From NCBI GenBank assembly GCA_002796125.1, contig PCWA01000109.1, positions 65,347-129,346 on the forward strand: a stretch of 64,000 nucleotides of DNA, given 5' to 3'. Positions 5,210 through 63,731 of this stretch are shown piece by piece. The position numbers and the translations under genes were made by a program. Below the pieces are notes generated by a model. That model was given only the letters and a program-made list of their open reading frames with translations. It was not told the DNA's origin and did not search any database. This DNA comes from Candidatus Ghiorseimicrobium undicola. GTDB taxonomy: Bacteria > Omnitrophota > Gorgyraeia > Ghiorseimicrobiales > Ghiorseimicrobiaceae. Numbering within the stretch: the stretch's first letter is position 1; every line of letters begins with the position of its first letter.

Positions 5210-5216
5210 TTCTTCC

Positions 5217-5256
5217 TCCTCAATGAGCCCTGACCATGTCAGGGTGAATTGATCAC
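5217..5256 (-). repeat. Family-1 intergenic hairpin element, copy A, between rplJ and rplL
   Basis: Plus strand reads cctcAATGAGC-ccctgaccatgtcaggg-tgAATTGATC. The RNA orientation is AAUUC-hairpin-GCUCAUUGAGGAGG immediately before the rplL AUG. Confidence 0.6.
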
Positions 5257-5258
5257 TA

Positions 5259-5801
5259 TCAGCTTTTGCTCTTTTTATCCTTTATGGCATTTATGGCGTA
5301 TATCGGCTTCCTTAATACACCATTTAATATATAAACCATGTTATTCAGCGGCGCTTTAATACAGTAAACAAACTTTGCCCGTAATTGATCCTTGCTGGGT
5401 AAATTCACCAGATTACCCAAATCCTGGCCTTTTACAAGGCGCTTCTCCAGGATACCGCCCTGAAATTCTAACGCCGCATGCGCCTTAGCAAAGTCAGAAA
5501 TCGCTTTGCATATTAAAATAGGATCATCATAGCCAAAGATAAACGCCGTTTGACCCTGGAGTATGTCAACCAGTTCTTTTAAATCGCTATCCTTTAGAAT
5601 ACGGCTGGAAAGAGAATTTTTTACTACAAAAAACCTGCTCTTGGTTTGAGAAAGATTATTCCTTAATTCCGTCAACTCGCTTGCCTTTAGGCCGGAAAAT
5701 TTTACCACAAACACGCTACTAATGTCATTGAGCCTTTTTTTAAACTCGCTTTCAACCGTTTTTTTATAAATTGTGCCGATTTTTTGCATGATTTTAACCA
5801 A
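5259..5801 (-). CDS. rplJ: 50S ribosomal protein L10
   Basis: 180-aa L10 family protein in the conserved rplJ-rplL order. Confidence 0.93.
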
Positions 5802-23072: not shown

Positions 23073-23176
23073 CACAATGGCACAGCGGCGCGATTTCCCA
23101 GCAAGGAAACACTGGCGCAATACAATTAAGCGCTAGGTGTTAAGTAAGCGCTGGCTGCCTTATAAACGCAAAGTGT

Positions 23177-23217
23177 CAATGAGCACATCCGCCGTAGGCG
23201 AAAAAGCGCGAATTGAC
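23177..23217 (-). repeat. Family-1 intergenic hairpin element, copy B, just after the hisD stop
   Basis: cAATGAGCacatccgccgtaggcgaaaaagcgcGAATTGAc. Confidence 0.55.
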
Positions 23218-24447
23218 TTACTTCTCCGTAAATCTCACCTTTACTGAATCGGCATGCTTAGTAAGCCCTTCTATCAGTGCCAGTTTTTCCAAAGAGACCC
23301 TCATCTTATCCAATGCTTTTTTAGAATATGATATTAAATGGCTTGATTTTATAAAATCCGAAAGGGATAATCCGGAGAAAAACCTTGCCGTGCCTGTAGT
23401 CGGAAGCACATGGCTGGGCCCCGCAACATAATCACCCACCGCAACAGGGGTAAAATCCCCCAAAAAGATAGCGCCGGCGTTTGTTATTTTAAGTAAAAAT
23501 TTCTTTGGGTTATTAAGCATTATCTGCAAATGCTCCGGGGCTATCCTATTTGTAATATCCGCCGCCTCATTAAGGTTCTTAGCCAGGATAATGTAACCTT
23601 TATCCACTTTATTTTTTATTTCACGGGCCAATTGTTTACTCGTAGTAATCAATATCGCAAGCCCGTCCAGATGCTCTGCCTGAGCCAATAGATCAGCGCT
23701 AATATATGAAATATTCCCGCTCTTATTTGCCACAACTACCAACTCGGTAGGCCCTGCTATCATATCTATATCTACAAATCCAAAGACCTGCCTTTTCGCC
23801 TCTGCCACATAAATATTCCCCGGCCCTACTATTTTATCCACTTTAGGTATTATCTTTGTGCCAAATGCTAAAGCGGCAATCGCCTGCGCGCCGCCAACCT
23901 TATATATCTCATTAACCTTCAATAAATCGGCGACCACCAATATATGGGGGTTAATATTACCATGTTTATCAGGCGGGCTTACCAAAACAATCCGCTTTAC
24001 TCCCGCAAGCTTTGCCGGTAAAACACTCATGTATACAGACGATACCAAAGGAGCCGTGCCCGCAGGAATATAAACACCCACTTTTTCAATAGGCGTAATC
24101 TTTTCTCCTAAAATAACGCCGTCCTCATCTTTAATTTTCCATGATTTTTTTATCTGCTTTTTATAGAATTTATTCACATTCTCTATAACCAATTTTAATG
24201 TAGATACGAAGTCCGGGCTGATATTCTGATACGCGCCGCTGATCTCTGCCTGTGTTATGCGTAATTGCCTGGAAGAAAGCCTTGCCTTATCAAATTTACG
24301 GGCATACTTTATAACTGCTTCATCGCCAAGCAAACGGACATGTTCTACTATATTACGCACAGTTTCTTCTACGCGCTTTTTACGCAGTAAATAGCGTGAA
24401 CATATCTTGTCAATTTCTTTTATATTGGCAGAGCGGATTATTTTCAC
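23218..24447 (-). CDS. hisD: Histidinol dehydrogenase
   Basis: 409-aa HisD family protein. Confidence 0.93.
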   Translation of the reverse strand: MKIIRSANIKEIDKICSRYLLRKKRVEETVRNIVEHVRLLGDEAVIKYARKFDKARLSSRQLRITQAEISGAYQNISPDFVSTLKLVIENVNKFYKKQIKKSWKIKDEDGVILGEKITPIEKVGVYIPAGTAPLVSSVYMSVLPAKLAGVKRIVLVSPPDKHGNINPHILVVADLLKVNEIYKVGGAQAIAALAFGTKIIPKVDKIVGPGNIYVAEAKRQVFGFVDIDMIAGPTELVVVANKSGNISYISADLLAQAEHLDGLAILITTSKQLAREIKNKVDKGYIILAKNLNEAADITNRIAPEHLQIMLNNPKKFLLKITNAGAIFLGDFTPVAVGDYVAGPSHVLPTTGTARFFSGLSLSDFIKSSHLISYSKKALDKMRVSLEKLALIEGLTKHADSVKVRFTEK

Positions 24448-29084: not shown

Positions 29085-29153
29085 CTAGCACCTCCTTAAA
29101 CTTAACATCTGCCATCCAGCATTAAGTGCGGCTTCCGCACCTTTTAACTTTTA

Positions 29154-29234
29154 CTTTACCAATGGCATTAAGGTAGTTAATATTTCGCTTATGTTTCCGG
29201 AATCTTTACCATTAGTTGTACAAAGCTCAATAAG
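29154..29234 (-). repeat. R2 repeat, copy 1, beginning 13 nt after the recA stop
   Basis: About 85% identical over 82 nt to 36440-36521, and the last 29 nt TTACCATTAGTTGTACAAAGCTCAATAAG are identical. Confidence 0.6.
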
Positions 29235-29246
29235 CCGCCCGGCATT

Positions 29247-30287
29247 TTAATCAGGTTTTATTTCTTTCTCGGCAAAGCTTTTTCTTACTTCCTTATCAAT
29301 CTCTGTAAGCAATTTTACATTTTCTTTTAAATATTTACGCGCAGCGTCTCTGCCCTGGGATATTTTTTCAGTTTTATATGAAAACCACGCGCCTGATTTC
29401 TCAATGATATTTTTACTTACCGCCATATCCAATACGTCTGCGGCGCGGGAAATCCCTTCATCATACAATATCTCAAATTCCGCTTCTTTAAAAGGCGGCG
29501 CGACTTTATTCTTTACAACGCGTACCCGTACTTTACTGCCGATTACCGCATCCGCCTCTTTAATCGCGCCTATACGCCTCACATCAAGACGAACCGAAGA
29601 ATAAAACTTAAGCGCGTTACCGCCTGTTGTTGTTTCCGGATTACCAAACATGACTCCGATTTTCATGCGTATCTGGTTAATAAAAACAACGCATGTTTTA
29701 GATTTACTGATTGCCGCGGTAAGTTTACGTAATGCCTGAGACATAAGGCGCGCTTGTAAGCCCATGTGCGAATCACCCATCTCTCCCTCAATCTCTGCGC
29801 GCGGCGTAAGAGCGGCCACCGAATCAATAACGATTAAATCTATCGCATTCGACCTTACAAGGGTCTCGGTAATCTCCAAGGCCTGTTCTCCCGTATCCGG
29901 CTGTGAAATTAAAAGTTCTTCCAGCTTTACGCCTATCTTTTTGGCATAAGTAGAATCAAAGGCGTGTTCTGCATCTATGAAGGCCGCGGTTCCCGATTGT
30001 TTCTGCACCTGACTGATAGCGCTTAAAGTAAGCGTTGTTTTACCGGAAGCCTCAGGGCCAAAAATTTCAATTACCCGCCCGCGCGGGAGGCCCCCTACCC
30101 CTAAAGCAACATCCAAAGATAAAGCCCCTGTAGAAATGGCAGGAACATCTACTTTTGCCTTTTCATCAAGCTTCATAATCGAACCCTTACCGAACTGTTT
30201 CTCTATTTGAGACAACGCCAGCTCAAGCGCTTTCTGACGGTTTGAATCTGTTTTCACTGCTTCATCCTTTTTTTTGTCTTTAATCAT
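29247..30287 (-). CDS. recA: Recombinase RecA
   Basis: 346-aa canonical RecA with the Walker A motif and an L2 loop. The RBS is AAGGGAGG. Confidence 0.95.
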
Positions 30288-35059: not shown

Positions 35060-35176
35060 TAATGAGCGCATAACTTGCGGAGGCGAAGCCGACGTAAGTT
35101 ATAGGCGCGAATTAATCCCGAAGCCTACGCAATAAATTTCGAAGAAATTTACGAGTGTTTAGGCGAGGGATAACGG
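35060..35176 (-). repeat. Composite intergenic element I: long-stem family-1 element (35060-35119) plus a hairpin U module ending AGGCGAGGGATAAC
   Basis: ttAATGAGCgcataacttgcgg...ccgacgtaagttataggcgcGAATTAATc followed by aataaatttcgaagaaatttac. Confidence 0.55.
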
Positions 35177-36408: not shown

Positions 36409-36439
36409 TTAATTTAACTCCCAATCTTATTGACTCTTG

Positions 36440-36521
36440 CTTTACCACTGGCATCAAGGTAGTCAATATTCCGTTTATGTTTTGCGGAATTTTTACCATT
36501 AGTTGTACAAAGCTCAATAAG
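36440..36521 (-). repeat. R2 repeat, copy 2, beginning 10 nt after the etfB stop and inside the etfB-etfA spacer
   Basis: Homologous to 29154-29234 (copy 1). Confidence 0.6.
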
Positions 36522-36531
36522 ATTTCAGTTT

Positions 36532-37311
36532 TTATATTATGCCTTTTAGGCCTTTGATGATCTGATCAGCAGCCTCATTAATGTCGCCGTCAAATATTTT
36601 ACCGTTTTTCCTTTTCTCCGGACTAAAAATCTTAACTACCTGCGTAGGAGACCCGTTTAAACCCAACAAACTGCCGCTAGCTGAAACATCCGCGGCCGTC
36701 CATTTAATAATAGAGGCCTGTTTTGCGCGCATCTTCCCCTTTAGCGAAGGCAGGCGCGGCTCATTTATCTCTTTAACCACCGTTAATAAAATTGGCAATT
36801 TCCCTTCTAATATTTCAAATCCCTCTTCGGTCATTCTCTCAACCTTAATTATTTTGTCTCCTATTTCTTCGATTTTCTTGACATAGGTTACCTGCGGCAA
36901 ATCCAGGTGTGCCGCTATTCCCGGCCCAACTTGAGCCGTATCTCCGTCTGAAGCCTGTTTGCCGCATAAGATAATATCAAAATCTTTAATTTTCTCTATC
37001 GCCCTTGATAAAGCATAGCTGGTAGCCCAGGTATCAGAGCCGGCAAACGCCCTATCCGATAAAAGTATCGCTTCATCAGCTCCTAAGGAAATTGCCTCTC
37101 TTAGAGCGGCCTCAGCCTGAGGCGGGCCCATGGTCAAAACAGTCACTTTGGCGCCAAACTTCTCTTTGATACGCAATCCTTCCTCAATAGCATACATATC
37201 AAACGGATTTATGATTGATTCAACGCCCTCTCTTACCAATGTATTGGTTTCGGGGTTTATCCGCACATTGGTCGTATCCGGAACTTGTTTAATACAAACT
37301 ATAACATTCAT
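36532..37311 (-). CDS. etfB: Electron transfer flavoprotein beta subunit
   Basis: 259 aa, MNVIVCIKQVPDT... Confidence 0.9.
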   Translation of the reverse strand: MNVIVCIKQVPDTTNVRINPETNTLVREGVESIINPFDMYAIEEGLRIKEKFGAKVTVLTMGPPQAEAALREAISLGADEAILLSDRAFAGSDTWATSYALSRAIEKIKDFDIILCGKQASDGDTAQVGPGIAAHLDLPQVTYVKKIEEIGDKIIKVERMTEEGFEILEGKLPILLTVVKEINEPRLPSLKGKMRAKQASIIKWTAADVSASGSLLGLNGSPTQVVKIFSPEKRKNGKIFDGDINEAADQIIKGLKGII

Positions 37312-40091: not shown

Positions 40092-40103
40092 TTGTACCCT
40101 CCT

Positions 40104-40145
40104 CAATGAGCACATCCGCCCAAGGCGAGATAGTGCGAATTAATT
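40104..40145 (-). repeat. Family-1 intergenic hairpin element, copy C
   Basis: cAATGAGCacatccgcccaaggcgagatagtgcGAATTAATTcc. Confidence 0.6.
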
Positions 40146-40147
40146 CC

Positions 40148-40600
40148 TCATACTTCCTTTATCAAGGCAATTTCTTCACAATCCGGAAACTTTGGGCAAT
40201 TGCAACATTCCGCCCAAATCTTCTGCGGTAGTTCATTCTTATCCAGCTCATTAAACCCTATAGTTTTAAAATATTCTGGTTTATATGTCAAGACAAAAAT
40301 TTTCTTAACCGAAAAATCTTTGGCTTCATCCAGCGCCTTGGATATCAATTTACGCCCTATGCCTTTATTCTGCTTCTGTTCTGAAACAGCGAAAGATTTA
40401 AGCTCCGCAAGGCCCTGCCAGCCTAAAATATGCAAAGCGCAACAGCCATAGATATTACCCGCTTCTTCAAATATCCAAAAATCACGGATATTCTCATATA
40501 TCTCGTTCAATGAGCGGGCAAGCATCAAATCCTGCTTAGCAAAATTATTTATCAGCTTCTGAATACTTTCCGCGTCTTCTAATCTAGCTTTTCGAATCAT
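40148..40600 (-). CDS. GNAT family N-acetyltransferase (short ArgA-like)
   Basis: The acetyl-CoA-binding motif QNKGIGRKLI and a Cys-rich C-terminal tail. Confidence 0.65.
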   Translation of the reverse strand: MIRKARLEDAESIQKLINNFAKQDLMLARSLNEIYENIRDFWIFEEAGNIYGCCALHILGWQGLAELKSFAVSEQKQNKGIGRKLISKALDEAKDFSVKKIFVLTYKPEYFKTIGFNELDKNELPQKIWAECCNCPKFPDCEEIALIKEV

Positions 40601-40657
40601 TTAATGAGCCCACAACTTACGGAGCAAAGCGAACGTAAGTTGTATGGGCGAATTATT
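40601..40657 (-). repeat. Family-1 element, long-stem copy F, overlapping the glgC stop codon
   Basis: ttAATGAGCccacaacttacggagcaaagcgaacgtaagttgtatgggcGAATTATT. Confidence 0.6.
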
Positions 40658-41897
40658 ATTTATTATTCTGACTTTGTTCGCCGCCTATCTTGGTCCTTTT
40701 AGCAACCACCACTATGCCGGATTCAGAAACAAAGAACTTTTTCCTGTCTTCTTCTACATCATAACCGATAACAGCCCCTTGCGGGATATTAACATCTTTA
40801 TCTATAATCGCGCGCTTAATCTTGGCATACCTTGAAACATTTACCCCTTCCATTAAAATAGAATCATAAACCTCAGAAAAACTGTTTATTCTTACATTTG
40901 GAGAAAGTATAGAGCGCTCTACCCTACCGCCTGAAACAATACAGCCGTCGGAAATCAAAGAATCTAAAACCTCACCCTTTCGAGAGGCGTCTTCTGCTCC
41001 CGAAAAAACTGTCTTTACCGGAGGAAACTGTTCATGATAAGTTCTGATAGGCCAGCTCCTGTCATATAAATTGAAAACAGGTGAGACCTGTACTAAATCC
41101 ATATTGGCCTCATAATAGGCATCAATTGAGCCGATATCCCGCCAGTATTGCGGTTGATTAACATCATTTTTAAGATTATAAGCGCAGATTTTTCTCTTTT
41201 TATCAATCATCTGGGGAATAATATTCCTGCCAAAATCATGATGCGTATCTTTTGCGGCATCTTCTCCTAATTCCTGCTCCAGCACATCGGTATTAAACAG
41301 ATAAATCCCCATTGAAGCATAGACTTTATCGGATTTATTTTGGTTATTTTTATAATCAGCGGGCTTTTCCTTAAAACCGCGGATATTTTCATTTTTATCT
41401 ATATCCACAACGCCGAATTGCACGGCGGCATTCCTGTCTATTTCAACAACACCAACGGTCAAATCCGCGTTATGCTCCCTATGAAAATCTATCATCTTGC
41501 AATAATTCATCTTATAGATGTGGTCTCCGGCTAAAATTAATACCTCGTCAGGATTCTCCTGTTCTATAGAGTAAATATTCTGATATATAGCGTCTGCGGT
41601 GCCCTTATACCAATCGCTTCCTACTCTCTGCTGTGCGGGGATAACATCTATATACTCTCCTATTTCCGACTCGAAAATACTCCAGCCCATTCTAAGATGC
41701 CTGTGCAATGATATTGATTTGTACTGCGTCAGGACATGTATCTTGCGCATGCCGGAATTAATGCAATTAGACAGCGTAAAATCAATAACCCTGTATACGC
41801 CGCCAAAGGGAACTGCCGGTTTTGCCCTATCGCGTGTTAGAGGATAAAGACGCTCACCTTTACCACCGGCCAAAATAAAAACAATTACATCTCGCAT
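40656..41897 (-). CDS. glgC: Glucose-1-phosphate adenylyltransferase
   Basis: 413 aa, ILAGGKGERLYPLT... Confidence 0.92.
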   Translation of the reverse strand: MRDVIVFILAGGKGERLYPLTRDRAKPAVPFGGVYRVIDFTLSNCINSGMRKIHVLTQYKSISLHRHLRMGWSIFESEIGEYIDVIPAQQRVGSDWYKGTADAIYQNIYSIEQENPDEVLILAGDHIYKMNYCKMIDFHREHNADLTVGVVEIDRNAAVQFGVVDIDKNENIRGFKEKPADYKNNQNKSDKVYASMGIYLFNTDVLEQELGEDAAKDTHHDFGRNIIPQMIDKKRKICAYNLKNDVNQPQYWRDIGSIDAYYEANMDLVQVSPVFNLYDRSWPIRTYHEQFPPVKTVFSGAEDASRKGEVLDSLISDGCIVSGGRVERSILSPNVRINSFSEVYDSILMEGVNVSRYAKIKRAIIDKDVNIPQGAVIGYDVEEDRKKFFVSESGIVVVAKRTKIGGEQSQNNK

Positions 41898-42958: not shown

Positions 42959-43752
42959 TGGTAATCTGCCGCTTTTATAAGGAGCTTGGTATAATCTTCC
43001 TTAGGGCGGCGCAAGATAATCTGCGTAATGTTTTCTTCTATAACGCGGCCTTTATGCATTACGTTTATCTTGGTCGCGATATCTTCGACTGCCCGTAAAT
43101 CATGAGTTATTAATAAAATAGATACCCCCAGCTCTTCTTTTAACTTTTTAAATAAGTCTATGATTTGTACCTGAAGCGTAACATCCAAATTACTAGTCGG
43201 CTCATCGGCAATGATAAGCTTTGGATTAAGGGCAATGCTCATGGCAATAACGATTCTCTGGCGCATTCCTCCGCTTAGCTGATGCGGGTAATATTTAATA
43301 ACCTCTTTGGCGCCCGCTATACCCACAAGCTTTAATAGCTCAACCATCTTTCCATAAATTTTCTCTTTGCCCAGGTCAGAGTGATACCTGAAAACCTCAT
43401 ACATCTGGTAGCCGATGGTAAATACGGGATTAAGCGCGCTCAGCGGCTCCTGAAAAATTATGGAAATTTCCTCTCCTCTTATTTTCGCCATATATTCCGG
43501 CCGCGCCTTCACCAAATCCCTGCCTTTATATAAAACTTCTCCTTTTTCAATTCGCGCATTTGAGCCCAAAAGCATTAATATTGACAGGGCCGCGCTTGAT
43601 TTACCACAACCTGAGGCGCCGACCAATGCCACAACTTCATCTTCTAAAAGTGTCAAATTAAACCCTTCCAATATGGTATTTTTACCATTTTCGGAATAAT
43701 AGCTTAGTTTTAAATCTTTAATCTCTAACAATGTCTCTTTTGTTTTTCTCAT
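42955..43752 (-). CDS. Oligopeptide/dipeptide ABC transporter ATP-binding protein (OppD/DppD type)
   Basis: 265-aa ABC ATPase with LSGGMRQR. Confidence 0.85.
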   Translation of the reverse strand: MRKTKETLLEIKDLKLSYYSENGKNTILEGFNLTLLEDEVVALVGASGCGKSSAALSILMLLGSNARIEKGEVLYKGRDLVKARPEYMAKIRGEEISIIFQEPLSALNPVFTIGYQMYEVFRYHSDLGKEKIYGKMVELLKLVGIAGAKEVIKYYPHQLSGGMRQRIVIAMSIALNPKLIIADEPTSNLDVTLQVQIIDLFKKLKEELGVSILLITHDLRAVEDIATKINVMHKGRVIEENITQIILRRPKEDYTKLLIKAADYQ

Positions 43753-43966
43753 CTAATGAGCCCACAACTTACGGAGGCAAAGCCGACGTAAGTTGTATGG
43801 GCGAATTATTCCGATGGCTGCAAGTAGATTTCGCAGAAATCTACGCAGTGTTTAGCCATCGGGAAATGAGCGCATCCGCCTACGGCGAAATCTGCGCGAA
43901 TTATCCCGAAGCCTATCGGGGAAATCTCGAAGAGATTTACCCGATGCTTAGGCGAGGGGAATGAGC
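43753..43966 (-). repeat. Composite intergenic mosaic G inside the opp operon, between oppC and oppD
   Basis: Four parts in order. First a long-stem family-1 element (43753-43810). Then a 9-bp-stem hairpin CCGATGGCT...AGCCATCGG (43811-43862). Then a short-stem family-1 element (43863-43906). Then a hairpin U module ending GGCGAGGGGAATGAGCC at the oppC stop. Confidence 0.6.
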
Positions 43967-43968
43967 CA

Positions 43969-46118: not shown

Positions 46119-47864
46119 TTAATTTTTAATGTATATTTCTTCCAAATTATGAAAAGCCCCTCCGAAACTTGAGAGTTTTAAATTACCGAATTTATTGCGC
46201 ACGGCAAACATGGAGTCTGACAATACGGTATAAATTAAAGGCAGTTCTTTTGAGACAATCACCTGCCATTCATCATAGAGCGATTTTCGGTTCTTTTCAT
46301 CCAATTCCTGAACCGCTAAATCGAAGATTTCATCAATGCGCCTCTCCCATGATGTTTGAGGGCTAAGCTGCTCAGGATTCCACATATGAAGGCGGCCGCT
46401 GGATGCCCAAACATTCCTGCCGAAATGCGGCTCAATGCCTCCAGTTAAGCCGATAATCATGGCATCCCAGTCAAAGGTAGAAGTAAGCCGCTGGACAAGA
46501 TTATTGAATTCCAAAGGTAAAAAATTAACCTTTATGCCGATACGGGATAAATCATTGCTGATAATAGCGGCCATCTGTATTCTCTGATTATCCTGCGCGC
46601 TGGTATAAAGGCTAAATTCTATATCCTTGCCATTTTCATCTTCCAGCAAACCATCGCCGTCAATATCCTTATATCCTGATTCATCCAAAATATCACGCGC
46701 CTTATCTAAATCATAATCATAGGCCTCAACATCGGGATTATAGAAAAATCCTGCCGATGGGCTCATAGCTGAATCCTGCGCGATACCAAATCCATTCATC
46801 AGGATTTGAATAATCATTTCCTTGTCTATGGAATGGGCTATTGCTTTTCTAAAATTTACATCTTTAAACCATCCCAATTTATTGGCGTTAATATAGGGTT
46901 TGTTGGACCGCGGATTTAGGCCGCTGTTTTGATTAAATACTATAAAATTACTGCCAAACGCGGGGCCGGTATTGTAAATAGTAAAATCCCTTTCCTTCTC
47001 TTTCGGCTTGAGCAGTGGGTAATCCGTCCCCCTCAACGAATAATAATCAATTTCTCCATCTAGAAATTTCAACAAGGCCGTGTCCTGATTACCCAATATA
47101 ATAAAAATTATTTTTTCCATATAGGGAAGGTTATTTCCGTTTTTGTCCCGCCTATAATAATCCGGGTTCCTCCTTAAAACTATCCGCTCGCCGGGGATAT
47201 ATTGCGAAAGCATGAAAGGGCCTGTCCCGATAATCTCTGAAGGTTTGGAATCCGCCCCCCAGGTAAAATTAAATTTTCCGTTTTCAACAGACGATTCTAA
47301 AATATGTTTGGGCAGGATTTCTGTAGACATCGCCCTTAAAAAAGGCGCGAATTTCTTAGGCAGTATAAATCGCACATGAAATTCATCTATCTTTTGAACC
47401 TTGACAGGCTGGCCTTCTATGCTGAAGATATCCCTGGCAGAATTTGGTATATCATCATTATAGATAAGTTTATTAAAGGTAAAAATTACGTCATCGGCGC
47501 TGAATCTTTCGCCGTCAAACCATACAACATCCCTGCGTAATTTAAAATCCCAGACAAGGCCGCTCTTATCTACGCTCCAGCTTAATGCTAAAGCCGGCTC
47601 AACGGCAAGGGTCAAACCATTGGTCCTGGTCAGGCCTTCAAATATAATCTGTGTGATGGATGTAGTGGATGTTTCTTTGGCAAGGATAGGATTAAAAGAC
47701 CGGGGATCGGATGTCGCAGCCAGAATAAGTTCTCCGCCATATTTTGTATCAGCTGAAAATCCGGGCCTAAAACCGCAAAAAAAAGCCAAGAAAAAAATAA
47801 GTGCCGGGAATAAACGGGATAAATTGCTGTCTTTATTATTTTGCCGCAGGCTGAACCTCAACAT
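46119..47864 (-). CDS. Oligopeptide ABC transporter substrate-binding protein (family 5 SBP)
   Basis: The start is probably the ATG at 47864 (MLRFSL... signal peptide). The track start at 47897 overlaps secG by 62 nt. Confidence 0.8.
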   Translation of the reverse strand: MLRFSLRQNNKDSNLSRLFPALIFFLAFFCGFRPGFSADTKYGGELILAATSDPRSFNPILAKETSTTSITQIIFEGLTRTNGLTLAVEPALALSWSVDKSGLVWDFKLRRDVVWFDGERFSADDVIFTFNKLIYNDDIPNSARDIFSIEGQPVKVQKIDEFHVRFILPKKFAPFLRAMSTEILPKHILESSVENGKFNFTWGADSKPSEIIGTGPFMLSQYIPGERIVLRRNPDYYRRDKNGNNLPYMEKIIFIILGNQDTALLKFLDGEIDYYSLRGTDYPLLKPKEKERDFTIYNTGPAFGSNFIVFNQNSGLNPRSNKPYINANKLGWFKDVNFRKAIAHSIDKEMIIQILMNGFGIAQDSAMSPSAGFFYNPDVEAYDYDLDKARDILDESGYKDIDGDGLLEDENGKDIEFSLYTSAQDNQRIQMAAIISNDLSRIGIKVNFLPLEFNNLVQRLTSTFDWDAMIIGLTGGIEPHFGRNVWASSGRLHMWNPEQLSPQTSWERRIDEIFDLAVQELDEKNRKSLYDEWQVIVSKELPLIYTVLSDSMFAVRNKFGNLKLSSFGGAFHNLEEIYIKN

Positions 47865-48243
47865 TAATCTCTTCGCCTTCTTTTGCTGATGGCACAACGC
47901 CTAATTCTTTATTAGCCTCCTGTGAAACAGAACTATCAACAGTATTCTTGGGCTGACTTTCAGCCATGCCTTCCTGTAACTGCTTTATCGCGGCAGGAAC
48001 CTGGTCCATTAAAGATCGGCCGCGTTTTGCGGATATAAAATAAAGCGATAAACAGGTGGCAAAAAAGATAATCGCTAAAGACGTGGTTGTCTTGGCAAGG
48101 AAAGCGTTGCTTTTTGTCCCAAATATGGATTCAGCTGAAGAAAAAGATTCTAGAAAACCGCCGCCCCTGCCTGATTGAATTAATACAATAGATATGAGCA
48201 AAATACATACTATCACATGGACAGTTATCAAAAAAGCGTACAT
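47836..48243 (-). CDS. secG: Preprotein translocase subunit SecG with a C-terminal extension
   Basis: Two TM helices and the LIQSGRGGG motif. The pgk-tpiA-secG order is conserved. Confidence 0.75.
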   Translation of the reverse strand: MYAFLITVHVIVCILLISIVLIQSGRGGGFLESFSSAESIFGTKSNAFLAKTTTSLAIIFFATCLSLYFISAKRGRSLMDQVPAAIKQLQEGMAESQPKNTVDSSVSQEANKELGVVPSAKEGEEINVEVQPAAK

Positions 48244-48256
48244 TTTATTTTCCTTT

Positions 48257-48443
48257 CAATGAGCACATCCGCCTACGGCGAGATAAGTGCGAATTGATCT
48301 CCTTGCTTAAACAAGGGGTAAATTCTCTTCGAGAATTTCCCCCTTAAGCTTCGGAGTAGGTTAGAACTTATTAAGCTTAAACCTACCCGCAGCCTATCGG
48401 GGAAATTTCGAAGAAATTTACCCGATGCTTAGGCAAGGGATAA
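48257..48443 (-). repeat. Composite mosaic D downstream of tpiA: family-1 element, U1 hairpin, central hairpin, U2 hairpin
   Basis: Positions 48289-48395 are 105/107 identical to 49254-49360. U1 is GGGGTAAATTCTCTTCGAGAATTTCCCC, the central hairpin is GGAGTAGGTT...AACCTACCC, and U2 is ATCGGGGAAATTTCGAAGAAATTTACCCGAT. Confidence 0.7.
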
Positions 48444-49202
48444 TTATTCTATTGATTTTTTTATTATTTCAGAAAATGATTCTAGTTTTAAACTGGCCCC
48501 TCCTACCAGGGCGCCATCTATATCCTCTTGCTCCATTAGCTCTCTTATATTATCAGGCTTAACCGATCCTCCGTACTGTATACGCGCCTTATCAGACAAT
48601 TCTCTATCATAAAGTTCTGCCAATTTCTGCCTAATAAAATAATGGACTTCCTGAGCCTGCTGCGGCGTTGCGGTCTTTCCTGTGCCAATAGCCCACACCG
48701 GCTCATACGCAATAACCATTTTTTCTACATCCTCTTTTTCCAAACCCAAAAGGCCAAGTTTTATATGCTCTTCCACAACATTAAACGTTTTGGCCGATTC
48801 CCGTTCTGATAAATTTTCCCCCACGCACATAATCGGTATCAAGCCCTCTTTCAATACGGCTTTTACTCTTTTATTAACAGTTTCATTGGTTTCTCCGAAA
48901 AACTGCCTTCTTTCGGAATGCCCTATTATAACATATTTTACGCCTAATTCTTTTAGCTGCAGGAGAGAAACTTCTCCGGTAAAAGCCCCCTCCAATTCCC
49001 AGTGGGCATTTTGGGCGCCTAAAGCAATATCGCAATCCGAAATAGCATCAGCTACTTCATCTAAAAGCGTAAAACTCGGGACTATCACAATGTCCGCCGC
49101 TTTAAAGCCGTAAAACTCACGCTTTAGACCGTTAGCAAGCTCAAGCGCCTGCGCTATTGTCTTATACATTTTCCAATTTCCCGCGATAATAGGTTTTCTC
49201 AT
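48444..49202 (-). CDS. tpiA: Triosephosphate isomerase
   Basis: 252 aa, AGNWKM...IGHSERR... Confidence 0.95.
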   Translation of the reverse strand: MRKPIIAGNWKMYKTIAQALELANGLKREFYGFKAADIVIVPSFTLLDEVADAISDCDIALGAQNAHWELEGAFTGEVSLLQLKELGVKYVIIGHSERRQFFGETNETVNKRVKAVLKEGLIPIMCVGENLSERESAKTFNVVEEHIKLGLLGLEKEDVEKMVIAYEPVWAIGTGKTATPQQAQEVHYFIRQKLAELYDRELSDKARIQYGGSVKPDNIRELMEQEDIDGALVGGASLKLESFSEIIKKSIE

Positions 49203-49203
49203 G

Positions 49204-49463
49204 TTAATGAGCGCGTAACTTACGGAGTTCGAAGAACGACGTAAGTTATCTGCGCGAATTAATCTCCTTGCTTAAACAAGGGGTAAATTCTCTTCGAGAA
49301 TTTCCCCCTTAAGCTTCGGAGTAGGTTAGAACTTATTAAGCTTAAACCTACCCACAGCCTGCCCACAAGGGCGGGCCATCCTAATACCTTTAAAGGATGG
49401 GCCCTATCGGGTAAATATCGTAGAGATTTACCCGATGTTTAGGCGAGGGATAATGGCCATATT
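49204..49463 (-). repeat. Composite mosaic H upstream of tpiA: long-stem family-1 element, U1, central hairpin, a GC-rich hairpin, U2
   Basis: It contains the same 107-bp block as mosaic D, plus an extra GGGCCATCC...GGATGGGCCC hairpin (49361-49404). Confidence 0.7.
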
Positions 49464-50645
49464 TTATTTATCACTCAAAGCCGCAATCCCCGGCAATACC
49501 TTTCCTTCCATATATTCAAGTGAAGCGCCTCCGCCTGTTGAAATATGCGTCATTTTATCCTCCAGGCCGAATTTCGCTATCATTGCCGCGGTATCGCCTC
49601 CGCCGATTATCTTTATGGCGGATAAATTACCAAGAAAAGATGCTACCTTTCGCGAGCCGTTACTAAAGGCATCCACCTCAAAAATACCCAAAGGCCCGTT
49701 CCAGGCGATAGTCGCGGCATTCCTTAACGCCTCACAAAATTTATCCACTGTCTTTGGCCCTATATCCACGCCGATTAAACCATCGGCTATGTTCTCACCT
49801 ACGGCATCAACCTTGCCCGTACCATCAATCTTATCGCTGACTACATTATCTACCGGCAGTAAAATCTTAATATTTTTTTCTTTCGCCTTATCCAGTAAAC
49901 TCTTTGCCAAATCCAGCCTTTCCGGCTCAAGCTTTGAATTGCCTATCGCTTTACCCTGCGCCTTCAAAAACGTATAACACATTCCTCCGCCTATAATTAT
50001 CTCATCGGCTTTATTCAGCATGTTTTCAATCAGAAGGATTTTATCGGAAACCTTAGCCCCTCCCAGAATTAAGACAAACGGCTTCTTGGGATTATTTAAC
50101 GCCCCGCCTAAATATTCTATCTCCTTTGTCAGTAAAAATCCTGCGGCAGATTTCAAATAATTGGTAACACCTTCGGTAGATGCGTGCGCGCGGTGGGCAG
50201 TACCAAAGGCATCATTTATGAATAACTCTCCTAACGATGCCAGTTTTTTCGCAAATTCGGCATCATTCTTTTCTTCTTCTTTATAGAATCTTAAATTTTC
50301 CAATAAAACTACTCTTTCTGATGCTTCCTCTATATCTTTCTTAACGAGCTCACCTATGCAGTCGTCTAATTTCTTAACCGGCTCACCTAACAAAACCGCC
50401 AATTTTAAAGCAACCGGCGTGAGCCGGTACTCATCAACAACTTTTCCTTTAGGCCTTCCCAAATGACTCATCAAGATTACCTTTGAAGCGCCTTTATCTA
50501 AACAGTATTTTATTGTGGGCAAAGCCGCTTTAATCCTTACGTCATCGGTAATTTTAAAATCTTTATCCTGAGGCACGTTAAAATCAACCCTAATTAAAAC
50601 CTTCTTATTTTTTACATCAATATCTTTAATCGTAAGCTTATTCAT
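49464..50645 (-). CDS. pgk: Phosphoglycerate kinase
   Basis: 393-aa Pgk family protein. Confidence 0.95.
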   Translation of the reverse strand: MNKLTIKDIDVKNKKVLIRVDFNVPQDKDFKITDDVRIKAALPTIKYCLDKGASKVILMSHLGRPKGKVVDEYRLTPVALKLAVLLGEPVKKLDDCIGELVKKDIEEASERVVLLENLRFYKEEEKNDAEFAKKLASLGELFINDAFGTAHRAHASTEGVTNYLKSAAGFLLTKEIEYLGGALNNPKKPFVLILGGAKVSDKILLIENMLNKADEIIIGGGMCYTFLKAQGKAIGNSKLEPERLDLAKSLLDKAKEKNIKILLPVDNVVSDKIDGTGKVDAVGENIADGLIGVDIGPKTVDKFCEALRNAATIAWNGPLGIFEVDAFSNGSRKVASFLGNLSAIKIIGGGDTAAMIAKFGLEDKMTHISTGGGASLEYMEGKVLPGIAALSDK

Positions 50646-63527: not shown

Positions 63528-63538
63528 CTTCTTCACCT

Positions 63539-63585
63539 CCTCAATGGACACATCCGCCGCAGGCGGATAAGTGCGCGTTAATCCC
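63539..63585 (-). repeat. Family-1 intergenic hairpin element, copy E, upstream of spoVG
   Basis: ccTCAATGGACacatccgccgcaggcggataagtgcgcGTTAATccc. Confidence 0.55.
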
Positions 63586-63731
63586 GCTGAGCGTTTAGCA
63601 TGCGGGATAAATTTTACCTCTACCTCTCATAAGGTAGACACACTTGCGACAAAAATTCTTGCAGAAATTTTGGAAATTTTTAAGGAAAGAAATTTTAGAA
63701 GCTTTAAGATTTAATTCTGGGGGGGTAGCGG

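Follow-up and report, generated by a model that had tools for sequence, protein, structure and literature searches.

The 64,000-nt stretch of Candidatus Ghiorseimicrobium undicola analyzed here (contig PCWA01000109.1, positions 65,347 to 129,346; hereafter the window) carries the gene run pgk-tpiA-secG, and both spacers that flank tpiA are copies, close to each other, of an intergenic repeat that is modular and forms hairpins. Its family occurs in many genomes, most of which bear the label Omnitrophota. Read on the transcribed strand, the family's basic unit consists of two adjacent hairpins, H0 and then T1, and compensatory changes across copies indicate that these structures are selected for pairing. 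The family is apparently undescribed. At gathering score, the only Rfam 15 matches in the window were two tRNAs, and lowering the threshold to E-values of up to 10 across positions 48200-49500 returned nothing but low-scoring generic matches (17-23 bits, with cut-offs of 65-211), microRNA precursors for the most part. Likewise, full-text literature searches on repeats and hairpins of Omnitrophota, Omnitrophica or Velamenicoccus found no description of the family. A first-pass annotation of the window had already noticed a near-identical repeat around tpiA; as pgk, tpiA and secG all lie on the minus strand, it described the non-transcribed strand. It also missed that the family is widespread and mostly co-oriented with transcription, that T1 ends at a start codon or Shine–Dalgarno (SD) sequence, and that the spacers are nearly absent from relatives.

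According to the open reading frame (ORF) map, the minus strand carries not only these three genes but also nearly every other gene of the window. A repeat search of the window reproduced the 107-nt direct repeat that flanks tpiA (105/107 identical, 98%; Table 1) and revealed an adjoining repeat of 52 nt (48393-48444 and 49403-49454, 88% identical). Both mismatches of the 107-nt block lie near its ends, with about 91 nt of uninterrupted identity between them. In pairwise alignment the pgk-tpiA and tpiA-secG spacers were collinear end to end and differed in two respects: an insertion of 45 nt with two extra small hairpins (approximately 49361-49402) is present in the pgk-tpiA copy only, and the terminal hairpin is swapped, with a long T1 before tpiA and a short T1 before secG. 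The earlier view of the spacers as mosaics of reusable hairpin modules is borne out. Their predicted folds are far more stable than those of shuffled sequences (-95.3 kcal/mol, z = -10.4, for the tpiA-secG mosaic; -110.6 kcal/mol, z = -8.7, for the pgk-tpiA mosaic). In the relatives represented by loci L005, L007 and L008, the pgk-tpiA gap measures 0-2 nt and the tpiA-secG gap 4-97 nt, and the two spacers flanking tpiA are therefore insertions. The closest syntenic relative, L005, has the same gene order and a TpiA of 74% identity.

The annotation itself had raised the prospect that the repeat is an artefact of a collapsed or duplicated contig edge. This explanation, like chance similarity, has a probability close to nil, because independent assemblies reproduce the whole 1.9-kb region exactly. 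A region of 1901 bp is 100% identical in ENA ERZ27293413 and JGI 3300025833, which cross both copies and contain the same two mismatches, and an identity of 105/107 is impossible by chance. It is true that shorter contigs from other samples end inside the repeat, as an artefact might; a true repeat predicts the same breaks. An identical TpiA was found on contigs of several metagenomes, and the TpiA homologues with a source name are nearly all labelled Candidatus Omnitrophota or Omnitrophica. The contigs recovered for the window strain, from at least six samples, are all collinear with the window, although the two shortest start within the repeat and are thus uninformative on the junction. Similarly, all secG-bearing contigs are collinear, including further ones from other samples that run across the tpiA-secG copy. 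The suggested deletion or amplification of tpiA by recombination between the repeats stays theoretical in this light, as none of the recovered strain contigs contained a pgk-secG join or a deletion or duplication of tpiA.

The modules of the unit combine fixed feet with changeable interiors. H0 has the foot AUCCC-UC...UUC-GGGAU and a freely expandable interior, usually an AU-rich palindrome that we call U. In the spacers flanking tpiA, H0 holds two opposed U palindromes around a small central hairpin and closes as AUCCCU(U/C)GCC.../...GCAAGGAGAU; its left arm is the U module GCCUAA(A/G)CA-UCGGGUAAAU...AUUU(A/C)CCCGA-UAGG, and its right arm is the same module type inverted, with the bulge on the 3' side. 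The H0 of the tpiA-secG mosaic, a near-perfect inverted repeat of 145 nt (-80 kcal/mol, z = -10.8), is composed of a sense U2 (48392-48434), the central hairpin (48353-48388) and an inverted U1 (48305-48349). The two extra hairpins of the pgk-tpiA copy recur at a different place in the mosaic of locus L028. T1 has the foot YAAU-UC...UC-AUUR around a variable interior, and the long T1 before tpiA is predicted to fold with -20.1 kcal/mol (z = -4.2). The 107-nt block extends from the end of the left arm of H0 to the seventh base of T1, and the Y of the T1 foot, a base of stem P1, accounts for one of the two mismatches and is compensated within each copy (C..G at secG, U..A at tpiA).

At both junctions the T1 foot abuts the signals of the following gene. 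Before tpiA, AAGGAG lies 3 nt ahead of the T1 foot and the AUG 1 nt behind it (AAGGAG-AUU-T1-C-AUG), which places the start codon 3 nt after CAUU with no SD between. Before secG, AAGGA follows directly after the foot of the short T1, and the AUG of secG is at 48243. The true start of tpiA, at 49202, is thus set against the T1 foot and lacks an SD in the spacer. In public gene calls the tpiA product of the window (P0001, 241 aa) begins at Met12, 11 residues short (49170-49202, minus strand), and this miscall is probably explained by the SD-less AUG adjoining the T1 foot. Orphan-like 3' feet of T1, GGCUCAUU or GGCCAUU, were also observed before H0 at 43960-43968 and 49452-49458 (minus strand); they may be remnants of earlier units or of a third module, X, described below.

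Selection for pairing was assessed on 120 distinct copies of the long T1, in which the pairing of stems P1, P2 and P3 was compared with 500 shuffles. Pairing was retained in 96% of the cells, and compensatory cells with both sides changed numbered 192, compared with 59 ± 9 in the shuffles, none of which (0/500) reached 192. When the partners were slid by 1-3 columns, pairing fell to 22-43%. Four stem positions switch pair types freely: one in P1 (UA 56, AU 31, CG 12), one in P2 (GC 37, CG 35, AU 34) and two in P3 (AU 91, GC 13, and UA 65, CG 42). In addition, the variants of the P1 foot covary (UCAAU/AUUGA, UUAAU/AUUAA and UAAAU/AUUUA), as does the ACUUACG stem in divergent members, for example as ACUUAUG/CAUAAGU and CAUUUAGC/GCUAAAUG. 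More than 90% of the copies keep the foot sequence and the UC/UC of the unpaired loops. The association of the two hairpins is close as well: in 135 cases out of 143, T1 is preceded by an H0-type hairpin that closes at a distance of 8 nt or less, the commonest being the U module in the frame AUCCC-UY-GCNUAA...UANGC-UUC-GGGAU. Among 14 copies of the U module from 10 loci, changes on both sides were seen at 7 of 19 pairs. A resemblance of GGGCUCAU to the anticodon arm of initiator tRNA was dismissed, since its G varies with the pairing partner.

A covariance model built from T1 and run on the window recovered 10 copies, all intergenic and all on the minus strand: four long (66-73 bits), five short (14-32 bits) and one mini (22 bits). 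The element that the annotation had termed family-1 likewise occurs 10 times. The mini T1, in which the foot encloses a simple 7-bp hairpin, indicates that the foot can hold almost any interior. The U module recurs at 43912-43953 and 35124-35164, and of the compensatory stem changes that had been reported for it, one is clean (AAAUUUC/GAAAUUU and AAAUCUC/GAGAUUU), whereas the third copy (AUAUC/GAGAU) has a mismatch. Apart from this family, a block of about 100 nt with approximately 88% identity, CUUAUUGAGCUUUGUACAACUAAUGGUAAAGAUUCCG...ACUACCUUAAUGCCAUUGGUAAAG, is shared by two 5' leaders (29085-29260 and 36409-36545, both minus strand) that precede unrelated-looking genes. This block matched nothing in Rfam at E-values up to 1 and could represent either a further repeat family or a cis-regulatory RNA of its own.

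Table 1. Genes, spacers and hairpin modules of the pgk-tpiA-secG region, and further copies of the repeat in the window
Feature	Positions	Strand	Basis
pgk, 393 aa, upstream cistron	49464..50645	-	ORF; PF00162 on identical contigs
tpiA, 252 aa	48444..49202	-	ORF; PF00121 at residues 4-249
secG, 135 aa, downstream cistron	47836..48243	-	ORF; PF03840
pgk-tpiA spacer, 261 nt, wholly one H0 + T1-long mosaic	49203..49463	-	Fold, alignment, junctions of relatives
H0 of the pgk-tpiA mosaic, base AUCCCUCGCC.../...GCAAGGAGAU; holds U2, two extra hairpins, central hairpin and inverted U1	49262..49451	-	Fold and alignment
U2 module, sense, GCCUAAACA-UCGGGUAAAU...AUUUACCCGA-UAGG	49403..49444	-	Repeat search; cross-species covariation
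Extra hairpin pair, GGGCCCAUCC...GGAUGGCCC and GCCCUUGUGGGC, pgk-tpiA copy only (the 45-nt indel)	49361..49402	-	Alignment
107-nt block, copy B, from the left-arm end through the central hairpin, inverted U1 and AAGGAGAU to base 7 of T1	49254..49360	-	Repeat search
T1-long before tpiA, UUAAU-UC-GCGC-AG-AUAACUUACG-UC-GUUC-UUC-GAAC-UC-CGUAAGUUAC-GCGC-UC-AUUAA	49204..49262	-	Covariance model, 65.9 bits; fold
tpiA-secG spacer, 200 nt, one H0 + T1-short mosaic, then SD of secG	48244..48443	-	Fold, alignment
H0 of the tpiA-secG mosaic, near-perfect long hairpin of 145 nt	48297..48441	-	Fold
107-nt block, copy A	48289..48395	-	Repeat search
T1-short before secG, UCAAU-UC-GCAC-UUAUCU-CGCC-GUA-GGCG-GAU-GUGC-UC-AUUGA	48256..48297	-	Covariance model, 31.6 bits
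Divergent T1-short with small H0, then GAGGAGG and ATG	63537..63589	-	13.8 bits, weak
Tandem mosaic U + T1-short + U' + T1-long, ending 2 nt before ATG of an ABC ATPase gene	43749..43968	-	Repeat search, fold, covariance model
Solo T1-long; upstream stop UAA touches 5' foot, ATG 2 nt past 3' foot	40597..40664	-	73.1 bits
Solo T1-short, then GAGGAGG	40099..40151	-	Covariance model
H0(U) + T1-long unit, ending 1 nt before ATG of an ORF of ~1085 aa	35055..35171	-	Repeat search, covariance model
T1-short copy	23172..23224	-	Repeat search, covariance model
Mini T1 between rplJ and rplL, UCAAUUC-ACCCUGAC-AUG-GUCAGGGC-UCAUUGA, then GGAGG	5216..5260	-	22.3 bits

Beyond the window, the family was traced with a strict pattern for the long T1, ACTTACG-N8-16-CGNAAGTT-NN-GNGCTCATT (22 specified bases), scanned on a collection of species-representative genomes. 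At least 113 loci matched, most of them in metagenome-assembled genomes (MAGs) or single-amplified genomes labelled Omnitrophota or Omnitrophica. Going by the record labels of loci L049-L161, about a fifth of the matches listed belong to MAGs of Planctomycetia or Planctomycetales, and one match each is labelled Nitrospirota and Syntrophomonadaceae. A generic scan for the foot with a 4-bp stem gave 151 matches in 1.16 Mb of the sampled loci, compared with 4 in the reversed sequence. The pattern of the short T1 gave 39 matches in metagenomes, of which 4 were genuine and the rest unrelated G+C-rich sequence, and this form is thus confined to close relatives of the window organism. Neither T1 pattern was found in a scan of IMG/VR viral contigs. 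The closed genome of Candidatus Velamenicoccus archaeovorus (CP019384) contains an inverted T1-like pair (L167:16730-16955) within 7 kb of its tpiA. This pair lies between an NTP-transferase gene and an acetyltransferase gene, in the only closed Omnitrophota genome sampled, and the species may offer an experimentally accessible system for the family.

In many genomes the third module, hairpin X (UAAGU-GA-GGNC...GNCC-GA-ACUUA), stands ahead of H0. X resembles an inverted T1 in which GA/GA loops take the place of UC/UC, and its foot provides the UAA or UGA stop codon of the upstream gene; X and T1 are mutually inverted around H0. The X-H0-T1 triplet spans exactly the interval from the stop codon to the SD or AUG. 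Almost all of the triplets that were inspected run in the sense orientation. The ends of the triplet are inverted with respect to each other (UAAGUGAGG... and ...GCUCAUUAA), with TAA at both ends in most copies. A target-site duplication of TAA was not accepted as the origin of these ends, as the bases pair and covary in the feet of X and T1, and in L138 the two ends differ (TAA and TGA).

The bracketing of a single gene by near-identical segments of H0 or X with different T1 hairpins is not peculiar to tpiA. Comparison of same-strand pairs within each locus gave 97/98 identical positions for the window pair (965 bp apart), 124/128 for a pair in L093 (4209-6200, 1.8 kb apart) and 107/117 for one in L129 (6603-7800, 1.1 kb apart), and the same pattern was seen in L091, L067 and L138. 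In contrast, pairs taken across different loci score at background (mean 11.6, 95th percentile 24), and pairs within the window that lie more than 3 kb apart are unlike in this segment. This dependence on distance points to gene conversion or local copying between neighbours as the source of their identity, with putative exchange points inside conserved module borders (in the window, the GGCUG...GGG junction and AAUUCGC). The proposal of recent local copying or gene conversion around tpiA fits a block that is 98% identical with flanks at 88%.

The position of T1 relative to genes is narrowly constrained. Among 121 copies, the distance from CAUU to the next start of a long ORF is bimodal: 33 copies have 1-4 nt, and 46 have 10-20 nt, with the second mode at about 13-14 nt. 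In 44 of the 49 cases with an SD, the SD core starts 0-3 nt past CAUU, and 44 copies have no SD between foot and AUG. With respect to co-directional neighbours, as called by a crude ORF-based procedure, 94 copies are sense and 28 antisense (approximately 77% sense, or 3.4:1), and the orientation of T1 flips with that of the genes within single contigs. Replication strand was rejected as the cause of this bias, because opposite orientations occur 0.1-1.3 kb apart on 12 of the 30 contigs with multiple copies. Antisense copies tend to lie against a convergent gene's stop codon (14 of the 51 copies with no sense ORF starting nearby) or 3-4 nt from a tRNA 3' end. In L086, L141, L051, L089, L099 and L059, T1 ends about 3-4 nt from the 5' or 3' end of a tRNA gene, and one copy ends immediately ahead of what resembles a tmRNA start; T1 is therefore found elsewhere than at the starts of protein genes as well.

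The downstream genes are diverse, with 95 proteins falling into 167 Pfam families, none of which has more than three members, although some recur across species (groEL three times; dnaB, rplK, rpsT and secG twice each). In the absence of any association with a gene family or pathway, a gene-specific cis-regulatory RNA such as a riboswitch or ribosomal protein leader was rejected. Two further candidates were also discarded. An intrinsic terminator does not agree with the structure, which lacks a U-tract and has a T1 tail (AUUAA or AUUGA) followed by SD or AUG, and a scan of the two mosaics flanking tpiA detected no terminator-like site. A promoter inside T1 was rejected because of an 8-nt variation in the spacing of its halves, and only weak 9-of-12 sites came out of the scan.

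As to function, we see about an even chance that the unit acts as co-transcribed, folded punctuation between cistrons while spreading at the DNA level in the manner of REP (repetitive extragenic palindromic) sequences, of bacterial interspersed mosaic elements (BIMEs) or of REPINs. Co-transcription and the effects on RNA are inferred here from sequence and predicted folds. The unit would be transcribed together with pgk, tpiA and secG and fold into very stable local hairpins, which would keep the long untranslated spacer folded and thus protected from nucleases and Rho, would uncouple neighbouring cistrons, and would offer a fixed structural context at the ribosome-binding site (RBS), where the T1 foot adjoins the SD or AUG. 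As DNA, the family would spread and shuffle through some agent, and the identity of 105/107 would reflect recent local copying or conversion of the H0 segment between junctions 965 bp apart.

Several observations weigh against this combined reading. T1 stems contain 23 G-U pairs and 29 A-C pairs, and the antisense strand of T1 is slightly more stable than the sense strand (-26.2 and -20.1 kcal/mol); with no G-U excess over A-C and a somewhat better antisense fold, the hairpin itself carries no strand signal. Antisense copies also fit the strict pattern as well as sense copies do. Positional turnover is fast: the window has 10 copies of T1 and L005 has five in 20 kb, and the only site common to both is that upstream of secG, where the orthologous T1 of L005 has a different stem. 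A few copies stand at tRNA 3' ends or convergent stops, where a role at a start codon is impossible, and the tight spacing to start codons could result from genome compaction. Taken together, the equal conservation of antisense copies, the missing strand signal, the turnover and the copies at tRNA genes and convergent stops fit a selfish DNA element at least as well.

A purely selfish, non-autonomous palindrome of the REPIN type or of the type of miniature transposable elements with inverted repeats (MITEs) is accordingly the main rival explanation, if a less probable one in our judgement. It would be moved by a transposase (for example RAYT/Y1 or IS-type) that reads the hairpin feet, the RNA hairpins would be a tolerated by-product, and the sense bias and boundary fit would arise from purifying selection in compact genomes. 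Besides the points just listed, the inverted pairs (X and T1, U1 and U2), the nesting and shuffling of modules and the near-identical neighbours, which are compatible with local hopping, all suit such an element. Structure-reading transposases such as IS608 and RAYT recognize unpaired bases at hairpin feet, and unpaired foot bases are conserved here. On the other hand, no transposase was found: in a tblastn search with E. coli RayT, the 1.16 Mb of sampled loci, a thin sample of about 8 kb per genome, gave nothing better than E = 0.11. Within a genome the copies differ from one another, unlike the products of a burst, and the foot is conserved across many genomes mostly of one phylum label, which is unusual for REPs and MITEs. 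Furthermore, the 3.4:1 sense bias, the nearly uniform sense orientation of the triplets inspected, the recurrence of the same downstream families across species, and the TAA ends, which belong to paired feet and fail as a target duplication in L138, argue against it.

There is also a stronger version of the punctuation idea, which we put forward tentatively and regard as rather unlikely: X-H0-T1 would be a selected system of mRNA punctuation, from stop codon to start codon, at the cistron boundaries of Omnitrophota, and its invariant UC/UC (GA/GA) feet would be recognized by a conserved protein or nuclease. The context of the start would then be set by stacking on the SD helix or by near-leaderless mRNAs, and the modules would spread between junctions by local copying. 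If true, this would be the bacterial equivalent of the mRNA punctuation in organelles and would parallel, in nature, the synthetic RBS insulators.

Two narrower readings bear on the same boundary. It is unlikely, in our view, that T1 is primarily an element of translation initiation, the helix of which would stack on the SD:anti-SD duplex, or replace it on the 30S platform where the AUG is 1-4 nt away; alternatively, T1 could bring the AUG close to an SD-like G-run upstream, in the way of the split ribosome-binding sites of phage T4 genes 38 and 25. The bimodal and very tight spacing and the 44 SD-less copies would be expected on this account, and in 89% of the SD-less copies AAUUC is preceded, at 2-4 nt, by a G-run (GGGR or GGAG), tpiA with its AAGGAG 3 nt before the foot and its AUG 1 nt after being a case in point. 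However, the G-run is also present in 82% of the copies with a normal SD and 71% of those without a following ORF, and thus belongs to the motif in general; the AAGGAG of the tpiA and secG mosaics is paired in the base of H0. Antisense and tRNA-adjacent copies cannot serve in initiation. Moreover, since a strong SD is found in only about 30-50% of the genes of the window, SD-less starts are ordinary there, and this moderate use of SDs, along with the generality and pairing of the G-run, weakens the idea of a split SD.

Processing of the transcript at T1 is a further reading, and quite an unlikely one. An endonuclease would recognize the UC/UC (or GA/GA) feet and cut at the T1 foot, so that monocistronic mRNAs with very short or SD-only leaders and protective end hairpins would result, comparable to the RNase III sites of phage T7 and to tRNA punctuation in mitochondria. 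The conservation of unpaired loop bases across genomes, the extent of the unit from exactly the stop codon to the start codon, the copies about 3 nt from tRNA and tmRNA genes, and the length of T1-long, approximately two helical turns, are consistent with cleavage, whereas the short and mini forms, with only about 13 bp, are too short for RNase III, and no candidate enzyme emerged. Antitermination is very improbable. It would involve a boxB-like hairpin with a boxA-like tail (GCUCAUUAAA compared with GCUCUUUAACAA) that recruits NusB/NusE, or a two-hairpin RNA resembling put. The 3' tail does resemble the boxA of rrn operons and of lambda, and adjacent hairpins 1-2 nt apart recall the put RNA of HK022; yet boxA is recognized in single-stranded form, whereas the tail here pairs as part of P1 and clearly covaries, and the copy number is far above any known for such signals.

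Whichever of these readings holds, the family has practical consequences: its elements break short-read assemblies, cause start codons to be miscalled and, in several genomes, create near-identical direct repeats around single genes, and T1, H0 and X could serve as a lineage marker in the binning of Omnitrophota contigs. If the units are functional, a conserved RNA structure of 60-260 nt would stand at about one in six gene junctions of these genomes (10 copies for approximately 60 genes in the window), which would be of considerable weight for how genes are expressed in a major uncultured phylum. If they are selfish, they would constitute a palindromic family with a recognition sequence common to many genomes of mostly one phylum label, which raises the question of what maintains it.

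Among known repeat systems, the organization is closest to that of REP/BIME and REPIN-RAYT, and still the family is a member of none of REP/BIME, BOX, Correia/ERIC or MIRU. The label BIME-like, given in the first-pass annotation, is apt insofar as the copies are numerous, extragenic, imperfect palindromes arranged in mosaics with short motifs, with successive palindromes inverted across short linkers (U2/U1 and X/T1). It does not extend to homology: there is no sequence similarity, no RAYT was found in the sampled loci, and the 5' GTAG foot of REPs is replaced by YAAUUC/UCAUUR in T1 and AUCCC/GGGAU in H0, with GUAG occurring only as the loop of some short T1 copies. REPs are co-transcribed with operons, fold as RNA hairpins, stabilize the upstream mRNA and cluster at the 3' ends of genes. 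In contrast, the present family shows a strong sense bias and places its 3' foot exactly at an SD or AUG; its foot is conserved across many genomes of mostly one phylum label, whereas REPs are conserved within a genus, and its hairpin interiors are freely replaceable on fixed feet.

A modular hairpin grammar is not as unusual outside enterobacteria as had been supposed, with BOX, Correia/NEMIS and MIRU as counterexamples and ERIC cited as well. The BOX elements of Streptococcus pneumoniae (boxA-boxB(n)-boxC) are likewise intergenic and built from reusable modules in variable number with a stable predicted fold, and they often lie just 5' of genes, the expression of which they can alter. They differ in being species-restricted, in the unrelated sequences of their modules, and in having neither an exact stop-to-start fit nor a conserved two-hairpin foot. 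Correia/NEMIS elements of Neisseria and ERIC/IRU sequences of enterobacteria resemble the family as inverted repeats of about 100-150 bp in transcribed spacers that form long RNA hairpins; Correia elements are processed by RNase III, and ERIC modulates mRNA decay according to orientation. These, however, are MITEs with terminal inverted repeats and TA target duplications that are near-identical within a genome, whereas the copies described here are diverse, carry their TAA within stems and are found across many genomes of mostly one phylum label. The mycobacterial MIRUs share the location between the cistrons of operons, the orientation with transcription and the overlap of their ends with flanking stop and start codons, but they are tandem direct repeats with small ORFs rather than conserved hairpins.

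Integron attC sites (RYYYAAC...GTTRRRY) were considered and set aside: the U frame GCCUAA(A/G)CA...UAGGC merely resembles R'', and the neighbouring genes have core housekeeping functions and keep their synteny. The split ribosome-binding sites of T4 genes 38 and 25 offer a parallel to tpiA in the stable hairpin between an SD-like sequence and the AUG, but they are single-gene solutions, whereas the SD-like run of the family is paired in H0 and is present with or without a normal SD. What distinguishes the family from all of these systems is the combination of a foot conserved across genomes, a fit from stop codon to start codon, a sense bias, and replaceable interiors on fixed feet.

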